Shown here piece after piece: positions 7,870-34,454 of a stretch of 64,000 bases of DNA. The DNA comes from Alphaproteobacteria bacterium. Its GTDB lineage: Bacteria > Pseudomonadota > Alphaproteobacteria > MPNO01. Position 1 is the first letter of the stretch. Every line of letters starts with the position of its first letter. The notes beneath the pieces were generated by a model. That model searched no databases. It was not told the DNA's origin and worked only from the letters and a program-made list of their open reading frames with translations. The stretch is taken from assembly GCA_965231875.1 (NCBI GenBank), contig CBDDOM010000002.1:4690487-4754486 (forward strand), read 5' to 3'. The position numbers and the translations under genes were made by a program.

Positions 7870-9483
7870 TCAATTCGCCTGGCGCCGCAGAAAGGCGGGG
7901 ATGTCGAGCAGATCCTCATCGTTCACCGCGCCGGGCTCCACCGCCTCCGAGTCGACCCCCTCGAACTCCGGTTGCCGTGGCGGGGGAGACCCCGCCGCGA
8001 CGGCACCGCCCTGAGAGGCCGGTTTCGGCGCCACCGTCGGTTCACGGGGCGGAGCTTCCGCGGGCGCGGGTTGCGCATTCTCGGGATGACGCTGGTTCCG
8101 GGATTGGCCGACACCCGCCATTCTTTTCAGCAGGCTGGGGCGGCGGCGCAATTGCGGCGACCGCTGGGGCTGCTCAACCGCGCTGTCCGTATCGGCCCGC
8201 ATGCCGGAATCCGCCACGGGAGACTCGTCGACCGGCTCTTCTTCGAATTCCGGCTCTTCGCCCCCTTCGAAGAAGCTTTCCTGCGCCGCCGCGCTCTCCT
8301 CTTCCAGCACGGGCTCGTCCGTCCGTTCGATCGTCAATGCGTCCCCGCCGGGGGACGCATCGACGGCAGCCGGCGAAGGCAGGTCCTCGTACGGATGCGC
8401 GGGCAGCGCCGCTTCCGTGTGGATATCCGGTGCAAGCCCGGACATCGGCGCGGGCGGGAGCTCAGTCTCCGCGCCGGGCACGACGCTGAGAACGGGGCGC
8501 GGCTGCATGCCCACATCGGTATCGATCCCGGTGGCTACCACGGAAACCCTCATCTTGCCCTCAAGGACCGGATCGAGAGTGGAACCGAAGATTATGTGCG
8601 CCTCGGCATCCACCTCGTCACCGATGCGGTTGGCGACCAGATCGACCTCGAACAGGGTCATGTCGGGACCGCCGGTAATGTTGATCAGCACACCGCGCGC
8701 GCCCTTCATCGACACCTCATCGAGCAAGGGGTTGGAAATCGCCGCTTCGGCGGCGGCCATGGCTCGATCCTCGCCCTCCGCTTCGCCGGTCCCCATCATC
8801 GCCTTGCCCATCTCGCCCATCACTGTGCGGATATCGGCGAAATCGAGGTTGATGAGCCCGGGAACGACCATGAGGTCCGTGATTCCCCGCACGCCGCAGT
8901 GGAGCACCTCGTCGGCCTGGGAGAATGCGTCGGCGAACGTCGTCTTTTCGTTCGCCACGCGGAACAGGTTCTGGTTCGGGATCACGATAAGCGTATCGAC
9001 ATGCTTCTGCAGTTCCTCGATGCCCGCGTCGGCGACCCGGGCGCGCTTGCTTCCCTCGAACTGGAACGGCTTGGTGACCACACCGATCGCCAGGACCCCC
9101 TGCTCGCGCGCGAGGCGCGCAATGACCGGCGCGGCCCCCGTCCCGGTGCCTCCGCCCATACCGGCGGTGACGAACACCATGTTGGAGCCCGCGAGATGCT
9201 CGGCAATCTCGTCGATCGTTTCCTCGGCCGCGGCCCGCCCGATATCGGGCCTCGATCCGGCGCCGAGCCCATGCGTGATGTTGTGGCCAAGCTGGAGCTT
9301 GCGGTCGGCGAGGGACTGCACGAGCGACTGGGCGTCCGTGTTGGCGACGAGGAACTCGACGCCTCCCAGCTTCGCATCGATCATGTTGTTGACCGCGTTG
9401 CCGCCGGCGCCGCCAACGCCGACGACCATGATCTTCGGCTTGAGAGTGGCATCCGTCTCGGGTACCGAAAGATTGATAGTCAT
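7870..9483 (-). CDS. ftsZ: cell division GTPase FtsZ
   Basis: 537 aa. Tubulin signature GGGTGTG, an N-terminal GTPase core, and a long Pro/Glu/Ala-rich linker before the C-terminal peptide, as is typical of alphaproteobacteria. Confidence 0.97.
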
Positions 9484-26161: not shown

Positions 26162-26289
26162 ACAAACAGCAAGACTTAAAGCAGAACTTTATTGTCATCG
26201 GGCATGAGAAAAAGGAGTTAGAGCGCACATTTTATGAGGCAAAGTCGGCGTTGGGACAGCTACGGTCGTCGTTGCCCTAACAGTGTGTC

Positions 26290-26330
26290 TCAATTATGTT
26301 CTTATTATGTTCTTTATTGGTCAATTGCCC
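26290..26330. promoter_or_regulatory. AT-rich tandem repeat TTATGTTCTT x2 flanked by CAATT/CAATTG
   Basis: caaTTATGTTCTTaTTATGTTCTTtattggtcaattg, within the 460-bp divergent intergenic region between mraZ and the oxidoreductase operon. This is the most AT-rich stretch seen in the window. Candidate regulator site or UP element. Confidence 0.3.
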
Positions 26331-26495
26331 GGCAACGCCTGCCAGGGATGGGCAACCCGCGGGCCAGTTAATAATGTCCACAGGTCGTTGCGAACTACGG
26401 CAATGCGGGTTGGTTGAGTCGCAAGAGGGACGGTAGGTTTCTCCGATACCCGCCCCGGCATCGGCTCGGGAGGGGCTTTCGATGAGGGAGACGTC

Positions 26496-27224
26496 ATGAC
26501 CGAGAACCGTCAGGACGAGGCGTTGGGGTTCGAAGCCTTCGAATTTCCCCCGGATCCGGCAGATGATTTCGAATGGGTTCCAGCGACGCCCGAAATTGCG
26601 GGCAATCTGACCGAACCGCGGGAGGCCGATTGGCGGACCGCCGGCACCAGCCGCCGGGCGTTCCTGCGCGGCGTCGTCTGTTCGGGTGTCGCCGTCTCGG
26701 CGTCCGCCTACATGTTCACCGTGCAATCGGGCGAGGCGCGCGCTGCGGTGCGCGGCGTCGAGCGTCTGATCTCGCTGAACATCAACGGGAAGACGCGTCG
26801 CGTCGATGTCCCGCCCAGCGAAACGCTGGCCCAGACGATCCGCTACCGGCTCGGCCTTACCGGCACCAAGATCGGCTGCAACCGCGCCGAATGCGGCGCC
26901 TGCACCGTCCTGGCCGACGACACCACGATCTATTCCTGCTCGACCCTGACCCACCAGGTTCGCGGCAGGAAGATCACGACGGTGGAAGGCGTCGCGGCGC
27001 CGGACGGCACGCTCCATCCGGTGCAGCAGGCGTTCATCGACGAGCTCGGACCGCAATGCGGCTTCTGCACGCCGGGCCAGGTGATGGCGGCGGTCAGCCT
27101 CCTGAAGAAAAACCCGAAGCCGACCGTGGACGAAGCGCGCCGCGCGATGTCCGGCAACCTGTGCAGATGCGGCGCTTACCCACATTACCTCGCCGGCGTC
27201 ATGCGCGCGGCAGGGAGGGCATAG
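26496..27224 (+). CDS. Tat-exported (2Fe-2S)-binding small subunit of a xanthine dehydrogenase/aldehyde oxidoreductase-family molybdoenzyme (PaoA-like)
   Basis: Twin-arginine signal SRRAFLRG, and two [2Fe-2S] cysteine clusters (CNRAECGACTV; CGFCTPG..CRCG). Confidence 0.85.
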   Translation: MTENRQDEALGFEAFEFPPDPADDFEWVPATPEIAGNLTEPREADWRTAGTSRRAFLRGVVCSGVAVSASAYMFTVQSGEARAAVRGVERLISLNINGKTRRVDVPPSETLAQTIRYRLGLTGTKIGCNRAECGACTVLADDTTIYSCSTLTHQVRGRKITTVEGVAAPDGTLHPVQQAFIDELGPQCGFCTPGQVMAAVSLLKKNPKPTVDEARRAMSGNLCRCGAYPHYLAGVMRAAGRA

Positions 27225-27227
27225 ATC

Positions 27228-29642
27228 ATGGCCTATACACTGCTCGGCAAGAACTTCACCCCGCCGGATATCCACGCCAAGGTCACCGGCGCCGCCAAAT
27301 ACGCCGAGGACTTCCGTGCCGACGGCATGGTGTTCCTCAAGACCTACCCCTCTCCGATGCCGCATGCCAGGGTCAAGGCGATCGACGTCGAGGCCGTCAA
27401 GAAGATGCCCGGCGTGGTGGGCGTGCTGCTGCCAAGCGAGCTGAAGCAGCCCAAGGACGCGGGCCACGCGATCCTGACCGCCTACCCGGTGTTCGTGGGC
27501 CAGCCGATCCTCGCGGTCGCGGCGAAGACCGAACAGCAGGCGGAAGACGCGATTCAGGCGGTCAAGGTCGATCTCGAACCGCTTCCCTTCGTCACCGATC
27601 CGCTGGAGAGCCTGAAGCCGGACGGGCCGAACGCCCTTGTCGGCGGCAATGTCGCCAACCGGCGCGGCGTCAAGCTGCAGCAGATCAAGTGGACCGGCAA
27701 AGACTTCGCCAAGGCCGGCGACGATACCCTGCCGATGGGCAAGCCAGCGAGCGAGTGGAGCTTCGGCGACATCGAGGCCGGTTTCGCCAAGTCCAAGGTC
27801 GTGGTCGAGGAATCCTTCGTCAGCGCGGCGAACGCGCATCACGCGATGGAGCCTCGCTCGGCGTCCGCGTACTGGGAGGGCGGCAAGTGTCATGTCTGGG
27901 GGTCGACCCAGTCCTCGTCCTTCGCGGTGCCTAGCCTCGCCAAGCTGATCGGCATCAAGCCGACCGACCTCAACCTGGTCAGCGAGTTCTGCGGCGGCGG
28001 CTTCGGCGGCAAGGCCTATTCCTACCCGTTGATGGCCCTGCCGGCGCTGATGTCGAAGAAGCTCAACGGCCGGCCCGTGCTGATGCGGGTAAGCCGCGCG
28101 GACGAGTTCATCAACGGCTCGGCGCGGGCCGCGTTCCAGGGCTGGGTCAAGATCGGCTTCGGCGCCGACGGAAGGGTGCTGGCGCTCGACAGCTACATCG
28201 TGCAGGACAACGGCTCCACCGCCGGGTTCTGGGACTTCCAGAATTTCGGCATGGCGTCGTCGGTGATCCTGCAGCCCGAGGCGATGCGGTTTCGCGGCAT
28301 CCCGGTGCTCACCAACACCCCGCCGAAGGGCGCGCAGCGCGGCCCGGGCGAGAACCAGACGGCCAACATCCTGGAGCCGATCCTCGACAGGGCGGCGCGC
28401 GAGCTGGGCATCGACCGGCTGGCGCTGCGTCTCGCGAACGCGCCGGGCGGCGGGCCGAACGGCAAGATCGGACCCAAGCAGGGGCCGCTCACCAGCGCCT
28501 TTCTCAAGGAAGGGCTGGAGCAGGCCGCCGCGAAGTGGGGCTATGCGGAGCGGATCAAGAAGACCGGCAAGCAGGCCAACGGCAAGATCAGGTCGGTCGG
28601 TATCGGTCAGGCTTATCACGCCGCCGGCTATAACGGCTTCGACGGCATGGTCCGCATCACGCCGGACGGCAAGCTTCACATTCACACCGGCGTCGGCAAT
28701 CTCGGCACCTACTCCTACGGGGCGACCTCCCGGGTCGCGGCCGAGGTGCTGGGCTATGACTGGAACAACACGGTCATAGAACGCGGCGGAACGCTGAAGG
28801 CGATGCCGTTCAATATCGGCCAGTTCGGGTCCAACACCTCGTTCACCATGACCCGGACGAACTATGCCGGGGCAATGGACGCCAAGCAGAAGCTGCTCGA
28901 AATCGGCGCGGCGATACTCGGCGGCAAGGCCGACGACTACAAGCTCGACAAGGAGCGGGTGGTTGCCAACAACGGCTCGGGATCGATCACTTTCGCCCAG
29001 GCGGCGAAAAAGGCGATCGAGCTCGGCGGCAAGTATTCCGGCCACGAGGTCGACCCGAAGCTCAACGGGCTGACCAAGGCGGCGGTCGGGATGATCAAGG
29101 GCACCGGCCTGATCGGCGTCGCCAAGGACAAGCTGCCCAAGAAGGGGACCGTCCCGGCGCTGGCGGCGGCGTTCATCGAGATCGAGCTCGATCCGGAGAC
29201 CGGCAAGGTCGAGATCCTCGACTATATGGGCGTCGCCGATGTCGGCCAGGTGCTGCACCCGCAGGGGCTCGACGCCCAGATCCGCGGCGGCGCGGTGATG
29301 GGGTTCGGTCTGGCGGCGATGGAGCGCTACATCTACGACCCCGCCTATGGCCGGCCCAACGCCATCGGATTCCACCAGGCGAAGCCGCCGACCTATCTCG
29401 ACGTTCCGGCCGAGCTTGGCTCGCTCGCTGTCGAGGGGGCGGTGGACGAGCAGAACCCGGTGGGGGCCAAGGGCATCGGCGAGCCGGTTCAGGGGTCGGC
29501 GTCATCCGCCTATCTGAGCGCGGTATCCGATGCGCTGGACGGTCACATGTTCAACCGGGTCCCCGTGGTCGCGGACATGATCGTCAACGTGGTCGCGAAA
29601 CGGCCGCAATCCTACAAGCCGTTGCAGGTCAACAATCAGTGA
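27228..29642 (+). CDS. molybdopterin-binding large subunit, xanthine dehydrogenase family (PaoC-like)
   Basis: 804 aa, starting 4 nt after the FeS subunit. Ald_Xan_dh hammerhead and Moco-binding motifs (GGGFGGK, the QGxGxxT-like QGLDAQIRGGAVMGFG). Confidence 0.85.
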   Translation: MAYTLLGKNFTPPDIHAKVTGAAKYAEDFRADGMVFLKTYPSPMPHARVKAIDVEAVKKMPGVVGVLLPSELKQPKDAGHAILTAYPVFVGQPILAVAAKTEQQAEDAIQAVKVDLEPLPFVTDPLESLKPDGPNALVGGNVANRRGVKLQQIKWTGKDFAKAGDDTLPMGKPASEWSFGDIEAGFAKSKVVVEESFVSAANAHHAMEPRSASAYWEGGKCHVWGSTQSSSFAVPSLAKLIGIKPTDLNLVSEFCGGGFGGKAYSYPLMALPALMSKKLNGRPVLMRVSRADEFINGSARAAFQGWVKIGFGADGRVLALDSYIVQDNGSTAGFWDFQNFGMASSVILQPEAMRFRGIPVLTNTPPKGAQRGPGENQTANILEPILDRAARELGIDRLALRLANAPGGGPNGKIGPKQGPLTSAFLKEGLEQAAAKWGYAERIKKTGKQANGKIRSVGIGQAYHAAGYNGFDGMVRITPDGKLHIHTGVGNLGTYSYGATSRVAAEVLGYDWNNTVIERGGTLKAMPFNIGQFGSNTSFTMTRTNYAGAMDAKQKLLEIGAAILGGKADDYKLDKERVVANNGSGSITFAQAAKKAIELGGKYSGHEVDPKLNGLTKAAVGMIKGTGLIGVAKDKLPKKGTVPALAAAFIEIELDPETGKVEILDYMGVADVGQVLHPQGLDAQIRGGAVMGFGLAAMERYIYDPAYGRPNAIGFHQAKPPTYLDVPAELGSLAVEGAVDEQNPVGAKGIGEPVQGSASSAYLSAVSDALDGHMFNRVPVVADMIVNVVAKRPQSYKPLQVNNQ

Positions 29643-29664
29643 CGGGCGGAACGGAGGCAGACCA

Positions 29665-30654
29665 ATGACCGACTATATGCACGCATTCGACCTCTACACG
29701 CCCGCGAGTCTGGCGGACGCGGCAAAGCTGCTGGACGAGCACGGCAAGGACGCCTGGATCGTGGCCGGCGGCAAGGACAGCTTCGACTGGTTCAAGGATC
29801 GGCACAAGCAGCCCAAGGCGGTCGTGGACGTCAGCGGGCTCAAGGAGCTTCGCGGGATCCGGGACGGCGGCGACCACATCGCCGTCGGCGCGGCGACCAC
29901 GCTGACCGAGATCGAGGAGAGCAAGCTGCTGCGGGACAATTTCCCGTTGCTGGTCCAGGCCGCCGCCAAGGTGGCAAGCCCGCAGATCCGCAATTCGGGA
30001 ACCATCGGCGGCAATGTCTCGCAGGACACGCGCTGTACCTATTACAGGGACGGCTTCCCCTGCTACCGCGCGGGCGGCAATACCTGCTACGCCAACACGC
30101 CGACGGCGATGAACCGGGAGCATGCTCTGTTCGAGGCGGTACGCTGCGTCGCGGTGACGCCGTCGGACACGGCGCCGGCGCTCGTCGCGCTGGACGCCCA
30201 GATGGCGATCTCGCGGGACGGCAAAATGCGGACCGTGCCGGCGGAGAAGTTCTTCATCGGCCCGGACGTCGACATCACGCGGATGACGGTCCTCGAAAAA
30301 GGCGACATCCTGACCGAGATCCGGCTTCCCAAGGCGTGGGCGGGCGCCAAGACGTATTTCGAGAAGGTCGCCGACCGCGAGACCTGGGACTTCGCCCTGG
30401 TCAATATCGCGATGGCGGCCAGGACCGACGGCGGCATGGTGAAGGACGTGCGGGTCGCGTGCGGCGGAGTTCAGTGCACGCCGAGGCGGCTGACCGAGGT
30501 CGAGGACCTGATGAAGGGGGAGAAGGCGGGGGCGGAGCTCGAAAAGCTCGCGCAGCGGGTTGCCGCGCGAGGCGCGAAGGCGCTCAACTTCAACCACTTC
30601 AAGATCCCGCTGATGGGGAACCTCGCGGCGCGCGCGGTCAGATCGCTCGCCTGA
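29665..30654 (+). CDS. FAD-binding subunit of the molybdopterin dehydrogenase (PaoB/CoxM-like)
   Basis: 329 aa. FAD_binding_5 pattern (AGGKDSFDW, AVGAATTLTEI, GTIGGNV). Confidence 0.8.
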   Translation: MTDYMHAFDLYTPASLADAAKLLDEHGKDAWIVAGGKDSFDWFKDRHKQPKAVVDVSGLKELRGIRDGGDHIAVGAATTLTEIEESKLLRDNFPLLVQAAAKVASPQIRNSGTIGGNVSQDTRCTYYRDGFPCYRAGGNTCYANTPTAMNREHALFEAVRCVAVTPSDTAPALVALDAQMAISRDGKMRTVPAEKFFIGPDVDITRMTVLEKGDILTEIRLPKAWAGAKTYFEKVADRETWDFALVNIAMAARTDGGMVKDVRVACGGVQCTPRRLTEVEDLMKGEKAGAELEKLAQRVAARGAKALNFNHFKIPLMGNLAARAVRSLA

Positions 30655-31414: not shown

Positions 31415-31791
31415 GCAGTCCCGAAACCATCCGGACGCATATCGAGCGCGTCGAGGAAGCCTATGAGTTCATGCTCGCCTATGCCGCCCAGGGCCGCGGC
31501 GACGAAGGCGCGGGCCCGGACGGAACCCATATCAGGACTTTCCTGAATCAGTTCGACGCGGCGGTCGCCGCGATTGTCGGCGAACTCGACACGGTGCCCG
31601 GCGCCGGGGAGGAGGCCGCGGCGTTCCTGGCCGCGCTGAGGGCGGATTCGGAGATCGTGACATCGGTTCTCCGGGCCATGCTCGCGCGCGACCGGATCAC
31701 CTCCGAGGTGGTGGACAATGCGAACGGGCTGATCTCGGTCCGCTCTTACCTGACCGGGCTGTTCTTTCTCGACAAGGCGTTGCTCCCGTGA
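31411..31791 (+). CDS. hypothetical 126-aa protein translationally coupled to the cytochrome b gene
   Basis: The ATG at 31411 overlaps the TGA of the preceding gene (ATGA). In the track it is buried in the over-extended ORF 30856..31791. No recognisable motif. Confidence 0.45.
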   Translation: MSSPETIRTHIERVEEAYEFMLAYAAQGRGDEGAGPDGTHIRTFLNQFDAAVAAIVGELDTVPGAGEEAAAFLAALRADSEIVTSVLRAMLARDRITSEVVDNANGLISVRSYLTGLFFLDKALLP

Positions 31792-31821
31792 TCCGCCCCG
31801 TCGTCGAACCGTGCAAGGCTG

Positions 31822-32205
<384 letters not shown>

Positions 32206-32233
32206 GCTAACGTGGGTTCGCGACGGCTCGGCG

Positions 32234-32980
32234 TCAATCCAGTCCGCGCGCGACATCGTCGATCCGCGACATCGTCTCGCCGTCGAGCTTCCCGTCGCAG
32301 CGGGACGGGCGGAAGCGTCTCTGGAAGGCGGCGAGCACGGCGGCAAGTCCTCCCGACTCGTCGCAGAACCCGTAGCCGATACGGGTGAACGCCGCGCGGG
32401 CCCGGTCCTCGTCGGGCGATGCGGCGTCCCCGGTTTCACCGGGCCAGTATGCGTGCCCCTTCGCGGCCAACCGCCGCCAGGGGAAAAGCTCGCCCGGGTC
32501 CTGCTTGCGGAGCGGCGCCACGTCCGAATGCCCGACCACGCGGACCGGATCGATCCGCCAGCGCTCGCGGATACCGCCGAGCAGCCCTTCCAGCGCAACG
32601 AGCTGGGCATCGGGGAACGGGATGTAGCCGAACTCGTGCCCCGGATTGGCGAGCTCGACCCCGATCGACCGGCTGTTGACGTCCGGCTCCCCCGCCCAGG
32701 ACGAAACGCCGGCGTGCCAGGCGCGGCGATCCTCGTCGACAAGGCGGTAGACCGTGCCCGCCTCGTCGATCGCGTAGTGCGCGCTCACCCCCGAAGCCGG
32801 ATCGCACAACCGCGCGAGAGCCGCCTCCGCCGTGGGCATGCCGGTGTAGTGAAGAACGACGAGGTCGACCGGCACGCCGGCGGATCTCTTGCCGTGATTG
32901 GGCGACGGGCGCTCGATCACGTCCGGGCGGCTGTCGCCGGCAACGCGAAACGCCGCGCGCCGCTGACGGCGCGCGGGCAT
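32234..32980 (-). CDS. ampD: 1,6-anhydro-N-acetylmuramyl-L-alanine amidase AmpD (amidase_2 family)
   Basis: 248 aa. The HYTG..H..RAWHAGVS motif region aligns to E. coli AmpD, with Zn-ligand His/Asp positions present. Confidence 0.8.
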   Translation of the reverse strand: MPARRQRRAAFRVAGDSRPDVIERPSPNHGKRSAGVPVDLVVLHYTGMPTAEAALARLCDPASGVSAHYAIDEAGTVYRLVDEDRRAWHAGVSSWAGEPDVNSRSIGVELANPGHEFGYIPFPDAQLVALEGLLGGIRERWRIDPVRVVGHSDVAPLRKQDPGELFPWRRLAAKGHAYWPGETGDAASPDEDRARAAFTRIGYGFCDESGGLAAVLAAFQRRFRPSRCDGKLDGETMSRIDDVARGLD

Positions 32981-33014
32981 ACCGCGCTTCGATAGGCCTT
33001 TGGCGTTGTCTCGA

Positions 33015-33326
33015 TCAGGCGGCGCTGCGGCGCAGTGCCGCGTCGCGCCGGCTCTCGGGCTCGCGATAGGCCATCTTCACGTGGGCGGCGCAGTAGGAAA
33101 AGCCTTCCGAGGTCTTCCGACCGCAGAAATGGAAATCCTCCGTGCCGGGCTCGCCGTAGGGCCACTGGCACGTGCGGTACGGGGAGGTCTTGCTCACTCT
33201 CATCAGTGAGACGAGTTCGGATCGGTCCGACATTCTGGCGTGTCCTAAGATTGGAACGCGCGATAGATATGGTCGGCTCTTTCCAACGTCAAGATTCGCG
33301 ACCGGAATACTGGGCAACTGCGTCAA
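33015..33326 (-). CDS. GcrA-like protein containing only the GcrA C-terminal domain
   Basis: 103 aa. CQWPYGEPGTEDFHFCGRKTSEGFSYCAAHVKMAY matches the conserved GcrA C-terminal CKWPIGDP..F.FCG..PYC..H...AY block. The N-terminal DNA-binding domain (MSWTDE...) is absent, and only 45 bp separate the gene from the upstream ABC gene. Confidence 0.55.
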   Translation of the reverse strand: MTQLPSIPVANLDVGKSRPYLSRVPILGHARMSDRSELVSLMRVSKTSPYRTCQWPYGEPGTEDFHFCGRKTSEGFSYCAAHVKMAYREPESRRDAALRRSAA

Positions 33327-33371
33327 TTTGTTGCATGTGGACCGCCGAAACCGGCGTTGCGGGCGGCGATG

Positions 33372-34454
33372 TCAGTTGAGGCGGCCGCCATTCCCGGCAT
33401 CGAACAGATGCACGTTCGCGGTATCGAGCGTCACGTGGATGGCGTCGCCGGCGGCGGCCGGCAGGTCCGGATCGACCTTGGCGACCAGGCGGCGCGCGCC
33501 TCCGTGCTCGAAGAAGAGGAGCGTCGCGTCGCCGAGCGGCTCGATCAGGCTGACGGTCGCGGCGGTTGCGCCGGGCGTGTCGGCATCGACGACCAGGACG
33601 TGCTCCGAACGCACGCCGAGCACCGCGCCGCGCCCGGCGAGGCCGGAATCGACCGACGCGTCGAGCGCGGTCGTCAACCCGGCGCCGCGAAACTCCATCG
33701 CACCGTTCGCCTCCTCCACGGTGCCGTCGAGGAAATTCATCGTCGGCACCCCGAAGAAGCTGGCGACGAAATGCGACACGGGGCGCCGGTAGATTTCGAG
33801 CGGCCCGCCCACCTGCTCGATGCGTCCGGCATTCATCACCGCGATGCGGTCGGCCATGGTCATCGCCTCGGCCTGGTCGTGGGTGACGTAGACGAACGTG
33901 CCGCCGAGCTGTTCGTGCAGATGCTTGAGCTCGGTGCGCATGTCGACCCGCAGCTTGGCGTCGAGGCTGGAGAGCGGTTCGTCCATCAGATAGACGGACG
34001 GGTTGGTGACGATGGTGCGCGCGAGCGCGACGCGCTGCGCCTCGCCGCCGGAGCACTGGCCGGGCCGCTTGTCGAGTAGCGGGTCGATATGCATCGCCTC
34101 GGCGGCCTCCTGTACGCGGCGGCGGATCTCCTCGGCGTCGACGTTCTTGACCCTGAGGCCGAAGGCGATGTTCTCGAACACCGTCATGTGGGGGAACAGG
34201 GCGAGATCCTGGAACACCATGCCGAGCCCGCGCTCGCCGGCCTCGGTGTGGGTGACGATGCGATCGCCGATCACGATATCGCCGCCGGTCGGCTCGACGA
34301 GCCCGGAAATCATGTTGAGCGTCGTCGTCTTGCCGCAGCCCGACGGACCGACCAGGATCAGGAACTCGCCGTCGTGGATCTCCAGGTCGATTCCCTTGAC
34401 GGCGGCGAAGCTGCCGAATTCCTTCACCAGATCCTTGAGCACGATACCCGCCAC
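33372..34454 (-). CDS. ABC transporter ATP-binding protein (UgpC/MalK-like, carbohydrate uptake type)
   Basis: 360 aa. Walker A GPSGCGKTT, signature LSGGEAQRV, Walker B, and a C-terminal TOBE/MalK-like regulatory domain. Confidence 0.9.
   Translation of the reverse strand: MAGIVLKDLVKEFGSFAAVKGIDLEIHDGEFLILVGPSGCGKTTTLNMISGLVEPTGGDIVIGDRIVTHTEAGERGLGMVFQDLALFPHMTVFENIAFGLRVKNVDAEEIRRRVQEAAEAMHIDPLLDKRPGQCSGGEAQRVALARTIVTNPSVYLMDEPLSSLDAKLRVDMRTELKHLHEQLGGTFVYVTHDQAEAMTMADRIAVMNAGRIEQVGGPLEIYRRPVSHFVASFFGVPTMNFLDGTVEEANGAMEFRGAGLTTALDASVDSGLAGRGAVLGVRSEHVLVVDADTPGATAATVSLIEPLGDATLLFFEHGGARRLVAKVDPDLPAAAGDAIHVTLDTANVHLFDAGNGGRLN

Follow-up and report, generated by a model that had tools for sequence, protein, structure and literature searches.

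Contig CBDDOM010000002.1 of an Alphaproteobacteria bacterium genome (assembly GCA_965231875.1) carries, within a 64,000-nucleotide (nt) stretch that we analyzed and call the window, a short minus-strand gene whose predicted product matches the sigma-70-interacting domain (SID) of the cell cycle regulator GcrA. The minus-strand open reading frame (ORF) at 33015..33326 that an earlier, sequence-only reading had picked out is present, and its translation contains the motifs CQWPYGEP, FHFCG and YCAAHVKMAY. Its length of 103 amino acids (aa) from a TTG start is a mechanical maximum only, and the true gene almost certainly encodes 72 aa from the ATG at 33233. The exact 72-aa product (P0001) is found in public protein sets, where its relatives are called at 70–74 aa, and orthologous loci have an in-frame stop 10–20 codons upstream of the ATG (e.g. 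L013, L017, L019 and L021). DNA upstream of the ATG is conserved as nucleotides but with 1-nt insertions and deletions, which argues that it is non-coding and regulatory. Because the gene starts at 33233, the spacer to the neighboring ABC ATPase gene is 138 nt; the 45 nt given in the sequence-only reading, along with its ORF limits, holds for the TTG ORF but not for the gene itself. Coordinates of the features discussed below are collected in the table.

Table. Features of the SID-only gene and its surroundings (window coordinates)
Feature	Position	Strand	Remarks
Coding sequence, 72-aa protein (SID-only, GcrA family)	33015..33233	(-)	ATG 33233-33231, last codon 33020-33018, TGA 33017-33015
N-terminal hydrophobic segment, residues 6-13 (ELVSLMRV)	33195..33218	(-)	Aligns with Caulobacter GcrA 109-113 (TVLTL)
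CCCH zinc-finger core, residues 22-51 (C22-X14-C37-X10-C48-X2-H51)	33081..33170	(-)	Carries equivalents of sigma contacts: W24, P29, F34, F36, Y47
Short C-terminal helix, residues 51-56 (HVKMAY)	33066..33083	(-)	M54, A55, Y56 correspond to sigma contacts V149, A150, Y151; helix modelled at 49-55
R62-R63, at the positions of K157-K158 in the basic patch of GcrA	33045..33050	(-)	R63 in 56/56, R62 in 43/56 aligned proteins
C-terminal tail RRSAA, candidate ClpXP-type degron	33018..33032	(-)	-AA/-VA end family-wide
AGGA, Shine-Dalgarno-like element	33243..33246	(-)	9 nt upstream of ATG; read from sequence; AGGAC kept in closest relatives
Promoter-like element	33264..33292	(-)	-35 TTGACG 33292-33287, 17-nt spacer, -10 TATCTA 33269-33264; rests on cross-species conservation
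GANTC (CcrM-type methylation) site	33293..33297	.	Abuts -35; plus strand AGATTCG, a 6/7 match to the GcrA box YGAKTCG
Imperfect palindrome, 18 nt, TGCAACAAATTGACGCAG	33318..33335	(-)	37 nt past the ABC ATPase stop, ~25 nt upstream of -35; conserved in L007-L017 and L020
AmpD-like N-acetylmuramoyl-L-alanine amidase (Amidase_2)	32234..32980	(-)	34 nt downstream of, and on the same strand as, the short gene
Bacterial RNase P RNA class A (RF00010)	31823..32200	(-)	290 bits over the whole length of the model; immediately follows the amidase gene

The Pfam GcrA profile (PF07750) matches the ORF at 62.6 bits (E = 7.2e-17; cut-off 26.9 bits), in an alignment limited to residues 34–95 of the 103-aa ORF and to positions 96–153 of the 155-position profile, its last third. 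The NCBIfam equivalog model sig70cofacGcrA (NF050816) reached 47 bits against a cut-off of 280 bits and covered only profile positions 113–156 of 173. Searching PDB sequences with phmmer returned the GcrA SID chain 5yix_B (E = 6e-11) and full-length GcrA from the cryo-EM activation complexes, 7ye1_G at residues 116–159 and likewise 7ye2. The quoted motifs together with these matches confirm that the block of cysteine and aromatic residues noticed earlier is that of the GcrA C-terminus, and that profile support for it extends over the SID part only. For the GcrA N-terminal helix-turn-helix (HTH), tblastn found no match in the window, and none is encoded, in any reading frame, in the stretch from the ATG to the ABC gene. 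The 72-aa protein starts at the equivalent of GcrA residue ~104–105, where the ordered SID begins; the ~60-residue GcrA linker is absent, leaving only 5 residues ahead of the hydrophobic SID segment. Judged by domain content, the protein is a member of the Pfam GcrA family and a homologue of the GcrA SID. It is no orthologue of GcrA, as it has neither the DNA-binding domain (DBD) nor the linker and falls below the equivalog score. That the DBD is missing and that no adjacent exon or frame supplies one, as the first reading held, is borne out by tblastn, by profile coverage and by the orthologous loci.

The Caulobacter GcrA SID consists of loops held by a CCCH zinc finger (C118, C133, C143 and H146), and it inserts L110, L113, W120, P125, F130, F132, Y142, V149, A150 and Y151 into a groove of sigma-70 domain 2, a groove reported to be extremely conserved in Alphaproteobacteria (PMC5887438). 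Sigma-70 binding is disrupted or impaired by W120A, G129D, F130A, F132A, Y142A, Y151A, K119A and D124A (PMC5887438). We aligned 56 short proteins to Caulobacter GcrA residues 103–173 and compared them at these positions. All four zinc ligands (C22, C37, C48 and H51 in the window protein) are invariant (56/56), as are W24, P29, Y47, A55 and Y56, the equivalents of W120, P125, Y142, A150 and Y151 (56/56 each). F34 (F130 in GcrA) is kept in 55 of the 56, position 36 (F132) is F or Y in 55, and position 28 (D124; E28 in the window protein) is E or D in 55. Toward the N-terminus, the short proteins align with a GcrA stretch, residues 109–113 (TVLTL), that inserts into the sigma-70 groove (PMC5887438); here position 7 is I, L or V in 53/56 and L10, equivalent to L113, is present in 55/56. 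Position 54 (V149) is family-specific, with M in 48/56. Beyond the finger, the basic patch K157–K159 of GcrA contacts the non-template discriminator strand (PMC9976885). In clade C of the short family R62 is replaced by E and the tail is acidic, and in the window protein the position of residue 159 is Asp.

An AlphaFold2 model of the protein has pLDDT (predicted local distance difference test) values of 85–89 over residues 21–50, and both tails are of low confidence. Comparison of the model with the PDB by Foldseek placed 5yix_B on top, at 0.7 Å root-mean-square deviation over 37 columns, followed by 7ye2_G and 7ye1_G, with a probability of 1.00 for all three; these three GcrA SID chains were the only credible matches, at an E-value of just 3e-3 because the domain is very small. 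On the alignment and the predicted model, the zinc finger, the hydrophobic contact set and the SID fold are all present.

A pattern-based scan of one genome per species yielded 56 confirmed loci; since it used family-specific peptides, it defines the short family and is not a sample of GcrA-like proteins in general. Of these loci, 55 encode 69–79-aa proteins bounded by upstream stops and distributed over three clades, and L062 is the sole full-length locus, with an HTH (1/56). The short form is conserved in relatives: the family is present in at least 55 alphaproteobacterial species and is so far uncharacterized. An unbiased HMMER search of 1.84 billion representatives returned 6480 matches, of which the nine best (74–120 bits) are all 69–86 aa long; below the short proteins there is a score gap, and full-length GcrAs start at 67 bits. 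The closest genomes are metagenome-assembled genomes (MAGs) of Defluviicoccus, with 97–99% protein identity, and carriers also include abundant marine Rhodospirillaceae-type MAGs. Defluviicoccus are glycogen-accumulating bacteria of wastewater treatment plants. Full-text searches of the literature turned up no account of GcrA proteins reduced to the SID; in databases such proteins are labelled ‘GcrA cell cycle regulator’ or ‘hypothetical protein’.

Nei-Gojobori ratios of nonsynonymous to synonymous substitution (dN/dS) between the window gene and its Defluviicoccus-clade orthologues are 0.03–0.13, at dS 0.18–0.80. A value of 2.4 for L058 was set aside as an artefact of sequences equal in length but differently gapped. 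At least 8 independent contigs, from different samples, encode a protein identical to the 72-aa product, and wherever flanks are available they are always the ABC ATPase and the amidase. The gene is real, conserved and under purifying selection, and is neither a frameshift product nor a decaying copy. The proposal that it is a pseudogene fragment of a decaying gcrA paralogue carrying a chance ORF, also raised in the first reading, could draw on the loss of two of the three GcrA parts and on the non-canonical TTG start of the 103-aa ORF, but it is effectively refuted by the low dN/dS, by the same-length orthologues in 55/56 confirmed loci of three clades, and by the conservation of start codon, promoter and C-terminus. 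A frameshift in sequencing or assembly, or a mis-called start in a full-length gcrA, is refuted as well: no HTH lies in any frame over the 138 nt to the ABC gene or elsewhere in the window, the same protein recurs on the independent contigs, and independent genomes have the same architecture. Full-length homologues that would have pointed to a frameshift are not what the family consists of, as 55/56 scan loci and all nine best unbiased matches are short.

The full-length locus L062 (3..698, +) and the protein P0020 are GcrA-like paralogues with a divergent HTH that have in common with the short family the SP(F/Y)RTCQW motif and a -VA/-AA C-terminus. The SID-only family may have arisen from the L062/P0020 lineage, as a possible ancestral source, by loss of the N-terminus.

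What such a protein would do is suggested by truncated forms of GcrA. Without its N-terminal domain, GcrA still localizes with sigma-70 at promoters in vivo (PMC4647560), and GcrA-deltaDBD (residues 46–173) slightly speeds promoter melting in vitro (PMC5887438), a residual activity attributed to contact of the basic patch K157–K159 with the discriminator (PMC9976885). These results, and the alignment of R62 and R63 with K157 and K158, lead us to the reading of the protein as a DNA-blind cofactor. By this analogy we think it rather probable, though well short of assured, that it is a free-standing GcrA SID acting as a cofactor of RNA polymerase and sigma-70 that occupies the GcrA docking site. 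The 72-aa protein would dock 1:1 on the coiled-coil groove of housekeeping sigma domain 2, in free sigma-70 or in holoenzyme, as the Caulobacter SID does, and would ride with RNA polymerase to sigma-70 promoters. It would do so without sequence preference, since with no helix-turn-helix and no linker it could not read methylated GANTC. The two-arginine patch might give weak, DNA-binding-independent stimulation of open-complex formation, as with DBD-less GcrA. If full-length GcrA is present, the two would compete for the same sigma surface and methylation-dependent activation would be damped. The level of the protein would be set by ClpXP-type proteolysis through its -AA/-VA tail.

Two effects proposed for a free SID can be separated on the same analogy. 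Sigma-70 bound by the GcrA SID is functional as part of the holoenzyme (PMC4647560, PMC9976885), so that titration by sequestration is not to be expected and seems unlikely. An anti-GcrA or competitor effect through the occupied docking site is plausible and would require full-length GcrA in the same cell.

Several observations weigh against the cofactor reading. Gln replaces Lys119 in all 56 proteins, and K119A impairs sigma binding in Caulobacter GcrA; the same Gln is also present in the full-length GcrA-like protein P0020. Ahead of the first Cys the family has four inserted residues (T/A-S-P-F/Y), and ahead of Tyr47 one; both insertions could alter partner specificity. The hydrophobic segment 6–13 has pLDDT values of 55–59, within an N-terminal stretch of 20 residues modelled at low confidence. 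The acidic tail of clade C implies that a basic-patch activity would not be family-wide. When two GcrA HTH queries, one of them taken from L062, were run by tblastn against the window and all retrieved loci, only L062 was matched. Finally, we infer all four of sigma-70 binding, transcriptional effect, competition with GcrA and proteolysis. The equivalent of Gly129 is Asp in the window protein, and G129D disrupts binding in Caulobacter. We considered this as an argument against sigma binding and rejected it, as D or N is common at that position in canonical full-length GcrAs.

The changes near the interface could also mean that the SID fold has been repurposed for a partner other than housekeeping sigma domain 2, such as an RpoH-type or other group 1–3 sigma factor, another RNA polymerase surface or a non-transcriptional protein. 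In that case the protein's role would have nothing to do with the site that GcrA uses on sigma-70. Changes specific to the family lie at or near the interface (K119 to Gln, V149 to M, Q152 to R, an SP(F/Y)R insert and one more residue before Y47), the short family is set apart from canonical GcrAs by the score gap, and its promoter (below) resembles an RpoH-type consensus, a hint of a stress rather than a cell-cycle context. Yet the equivalents of W120, F130, F132, Y142 and Y151, mutation of which abolishes sigma-70 binding by hydrophobic contact, are all conserved, the sigma-70 groove is reported to be extremely conserved in Alphaproteobacteria (PMC5887438), and Gln at the K119 position also occurs in full-length P0020. 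We regard repurposing as unlikely, at perhaps a minor share of the probability, and retain the DNA-blind sigma-70 cofactor as the preferred reading.

The C-terminus bears on how such a cofactor might be controlled. All 55 short orthologues end in AA or VA (36 AA, 19 VA) versus 1 of the 120 full-length GcrAs that served as the comparison set, these being the full-length proteins among the database matches listed. ClpX recognizes C-terminal degrons of the Ala-Ala type, including the ssrA tag and the terminal Ala-Ala of CtrA. By analogy, the -AA/-VA tail suggests regulated ClpXP-type proteolysis of the short proteins.

Upstream of the gene, the promoter-like element is conserved across species. 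Across an alignment of 13 Defluviicoccus-clade loci, TTGA of the -35 never varies, C comes next in 12/13, and ATATC varies hardly at all; other clades carry similar CTTGAC or CTTGAA boxes. A promoter and terminator scanner run over 31700–33500 reported no sigma-70 consensus promoter and no terminator. The element can also be read as CTTGAC-N16-CATATCT, which is RpoH-type-like: Sinorhizobium RpoH consensus sequences are CTTGCC-N15-16-CCTATCT and CTTGAA-N15-16-CCTATAT (PMC4843759). The sigma-70 (TTGACG-N17-TATCTA) and RpoH readings appear to fit it equally well. Farther upstream, the palindrome TGCAACAAATTGACGCAG is a possible, putative regulator binding site. Inspection of the upstream region by eye revealed no convincing CtrA box (TTAA-N7-TTAA), alphaproteobacterial LexA box (GTTC-N7-GTTC), sigma-54 site or EcfG site, and Rfam returned nothing in the 5' region, its only match in the window being the RNase P RNA.

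Further conserved sequences were seen in these promoter regions. Boxes containing TGCAAC upstream of the gene could be assigned to no known regulatory motif. Clade C promoters (L049–L061) have direct repeats CTGCAAYGCAAC ~21 nt apart that flank the -10 region, and clade B promoters (L029–L048) have GCTGCAGCGCAC and GTGCAATGCAGC around the -10, in a region ~20–80 nt upstream of the short gene as for the clade C repeats; none of CTGCAAYGCAAC, GCTGCAGCGCAC and GTGCAATGCAGC could be assigned to a known regulator motif. In L012, a Defluviicoccus-related MAG, the -10 region is tandemly duplicated over ~20 nt, with GGGCCGACCATATCTA present twice ~40–80 nt upstream of the short gene, near 7920–7960.

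GANTC, the CcrM-type methylation site, is distributed unevenly among these promoters. The site that abuts the -35 in the window is suggestive only, because among 23 clade A loci just 8 have kept it, namely the closest relatives plus L012, L022 and L028. Most loci of clade B, which is marine, have GANTC at -16/-15 and/or -5 from the ATG, and in 16/19 one or more sites lie within 100 nt, for a total of 26 sites versus 0.24 expected per locus, an enrichment inflated by relatedness. Clade C has essentially no GANTC upstream of the short gene. Across the window GANTC is under-represented, with 123 sites observed versus 155 expected from a third-order Markov model or 191 from mononucleotide composition; this depletion is compatible with a CcrM-bearing genome and is an indirect hint, not a proof.

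Such sites raise the question of a link to the CcrM/GcrA circuit itself. The protein could be a purely dominant-negative anti-GcrA factor with no RNA polymerase activity of its own, displacing GcrA at certain cell-cycle or stress stages and switching the methylation-dependent regulon off. It has the docking domain in common with GcrA and is without DBD and linker, its degron-like tail would fit a timed antagonist, and GANTC in or near its own promoter or 5' untranslated region (8/23 in clade A, 16/19 in clade B) suggests CcrM/GcrA feedback. However, that enrichment is confounded by relatedness and absent in clade C, the tblastn search for a GcrA HTH in the window and retrieved loci matched L062 only, and the arginine patch has been retained (R63 in 56/56), a sign that the protein may act on promoter DNA to some extent. 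We consider a purely antagonistic role improbable, somewhat more so than repurposing, and continue to prefer the DNA-blind sigma-70 cofactor, for which competition with GcrA, where a full-length GcrA exists, would be one consequence among others.

The gene lies in an ordinary chromosomal setting. Upstream is a sugar-type ABC transporter consisting of a binding protein, two permeases and a MalK-like ATPase (ATPase gene 33372..34454). Downstream, 23 clade A loci (L007–L028, L030) have the amidase gene next, at short-protein identities down to ~56%, and metagenome contigs with the identical protein also carry the amidase next to it; in the window no terminator was called between the two genes. 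Clades B and C have other neighbors. In Defluviicoccus and relatives the short gene is probably co-transcribed with the AmpD-like amidase, predicted here to occur from the conserved promoter. Beyond the RNase P RNA are a cytochrome b561-like protein and a molybdopterin dehydrogenase cluster. The latter (26277..30654) comprises an Ald_Xan_dh_C/MoCoBD large subunit, an FAD_binding_5/CO_deh_flav_C subunit and a Fer2_2 subunit, assigned by way of the Pfam annotations precomputed for L001, a syntenic contig, and the region has many long overlapping antisense ORFs, typical high-GC artefacts. In clade C the short gene faces a convergent gene, at L053 (8189..10258, -), for a long Ala/Pro-rich protein whose C-terminus, by eye, has a LysM-like peptidoglycan-binding segment. 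This may be a second cell-wall-related neighbor beside the clade A amidase, and coincidence is possible.

Nothing at the locus is phage-like. A host-takeover gene of a phage or other mobile element, comparable to the phiCbK-type GcrA homologues, is an origin that a weak PHROG match (phrog_12262, E = 4e-10) and tblastn matches to GcrA-like genes of Caulobacter phages might suggest. The phage genes matched are full-length GcrA-like ones, the phiCbK homologue, at 182 aa, is more than a SID, a search of 2.9 million viral contigs gave one weak relative only, and the chromosomal context (sugar ABC transporter, amidase, RNase P RNA) is syntenic across species. We reject a phage origin.

Among known proteins the closest is Caulobacter crescentus GcrA itself (173 aa; 5YIX, 5YIV, 7YE1, 7YE2), with whose SID (residues 105–155) the mini-protein shares a homologous zinc finger at ~49% core identity and the same predicted fold, including the four zinc ligands, the hydrophobic sigma-70 contacts and part of the basic patch. 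The mini-protein differs in having neither the HTH that reads methylated DNA (residues 1–45; N6-methyladenine in GANTC, YGAKTCG) nor the ~60-residue linker, in a finger spacing of X10 where GcrA has C-X14-C-X9-C-X2-H, in the 4-residue insertion before the first Cys, in Gln for Lys119 and in its invariant -AA/-VA end. The engineered GcrA-deltaN (PMC4647560) and GcrA-deltaDBD 46–173 (PMC5887438) likewise present a SID without DBD and behave as we would predict for the mini-protein, although they retain the whole basic patch, of which the mini-protein has only the two arginines, as well as the linker, which in 7YE1 follows the minor groove of the DNA. Caulobacter GcrB (CCNA_01269) and phiCbK gp222-type proteins are also Pfam GcrA members for which an RNA polymerase interaction is proposed (PMC4647560, PMC3885167, PMC3556154), but they are longer than a SID alone as far as described or checked, the phiCbK homologue at 182 aa; gcrB (PMC3885167) is reported to be a gcrA paralogue that partially complements gcrA loss. 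In function, Crl (E. coli sigma-S) and RbpA (actinobacterial sigma-A) are similarly small monomeric activators that bind sigma domain 2 and do not recognize specific DNA sequences (PMC7403470), although they are unrelated in sequence and fold and belong to other sigma targets and lineages, so that the analogy is functional only.

One consequence is a corrected annotation: genes of this family labelled ‘GcrA cell cycle regulator’ or ‘hypothetical protein’ would encode proteins that cannot read DNA methylation. We also put forward, tentatively and as a generalization that has the odds against it, that the mini-GcrAs of Alphaproteobacteria are a widespread, hitherto overlooked class of proteolytically timed ligands of sigma-70 domain 2 that serve as GcrA antagonists or DNA-blind substitutes, adding a layer of competition to the CcrM/GcrA circuit or replacing it where canonical GcrA is absent, possibly under RpoH-type stress control. 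GcrA is the model for a transcription factor pre-loaded on sigma-70 that reads DNA methylation. If the cofactor reading is true, these bacteria would deploy a natural sigma-docking module alone, either as a competitor tuning GcrA-‘armed’ RNA polymerase or as a general cofactor resembling Crl and RbpA, and with 72 aa, one zinc finger and a candidate degron it would offer a small handle on sigma-70 cofactor competition in Alphaproteobacteria.

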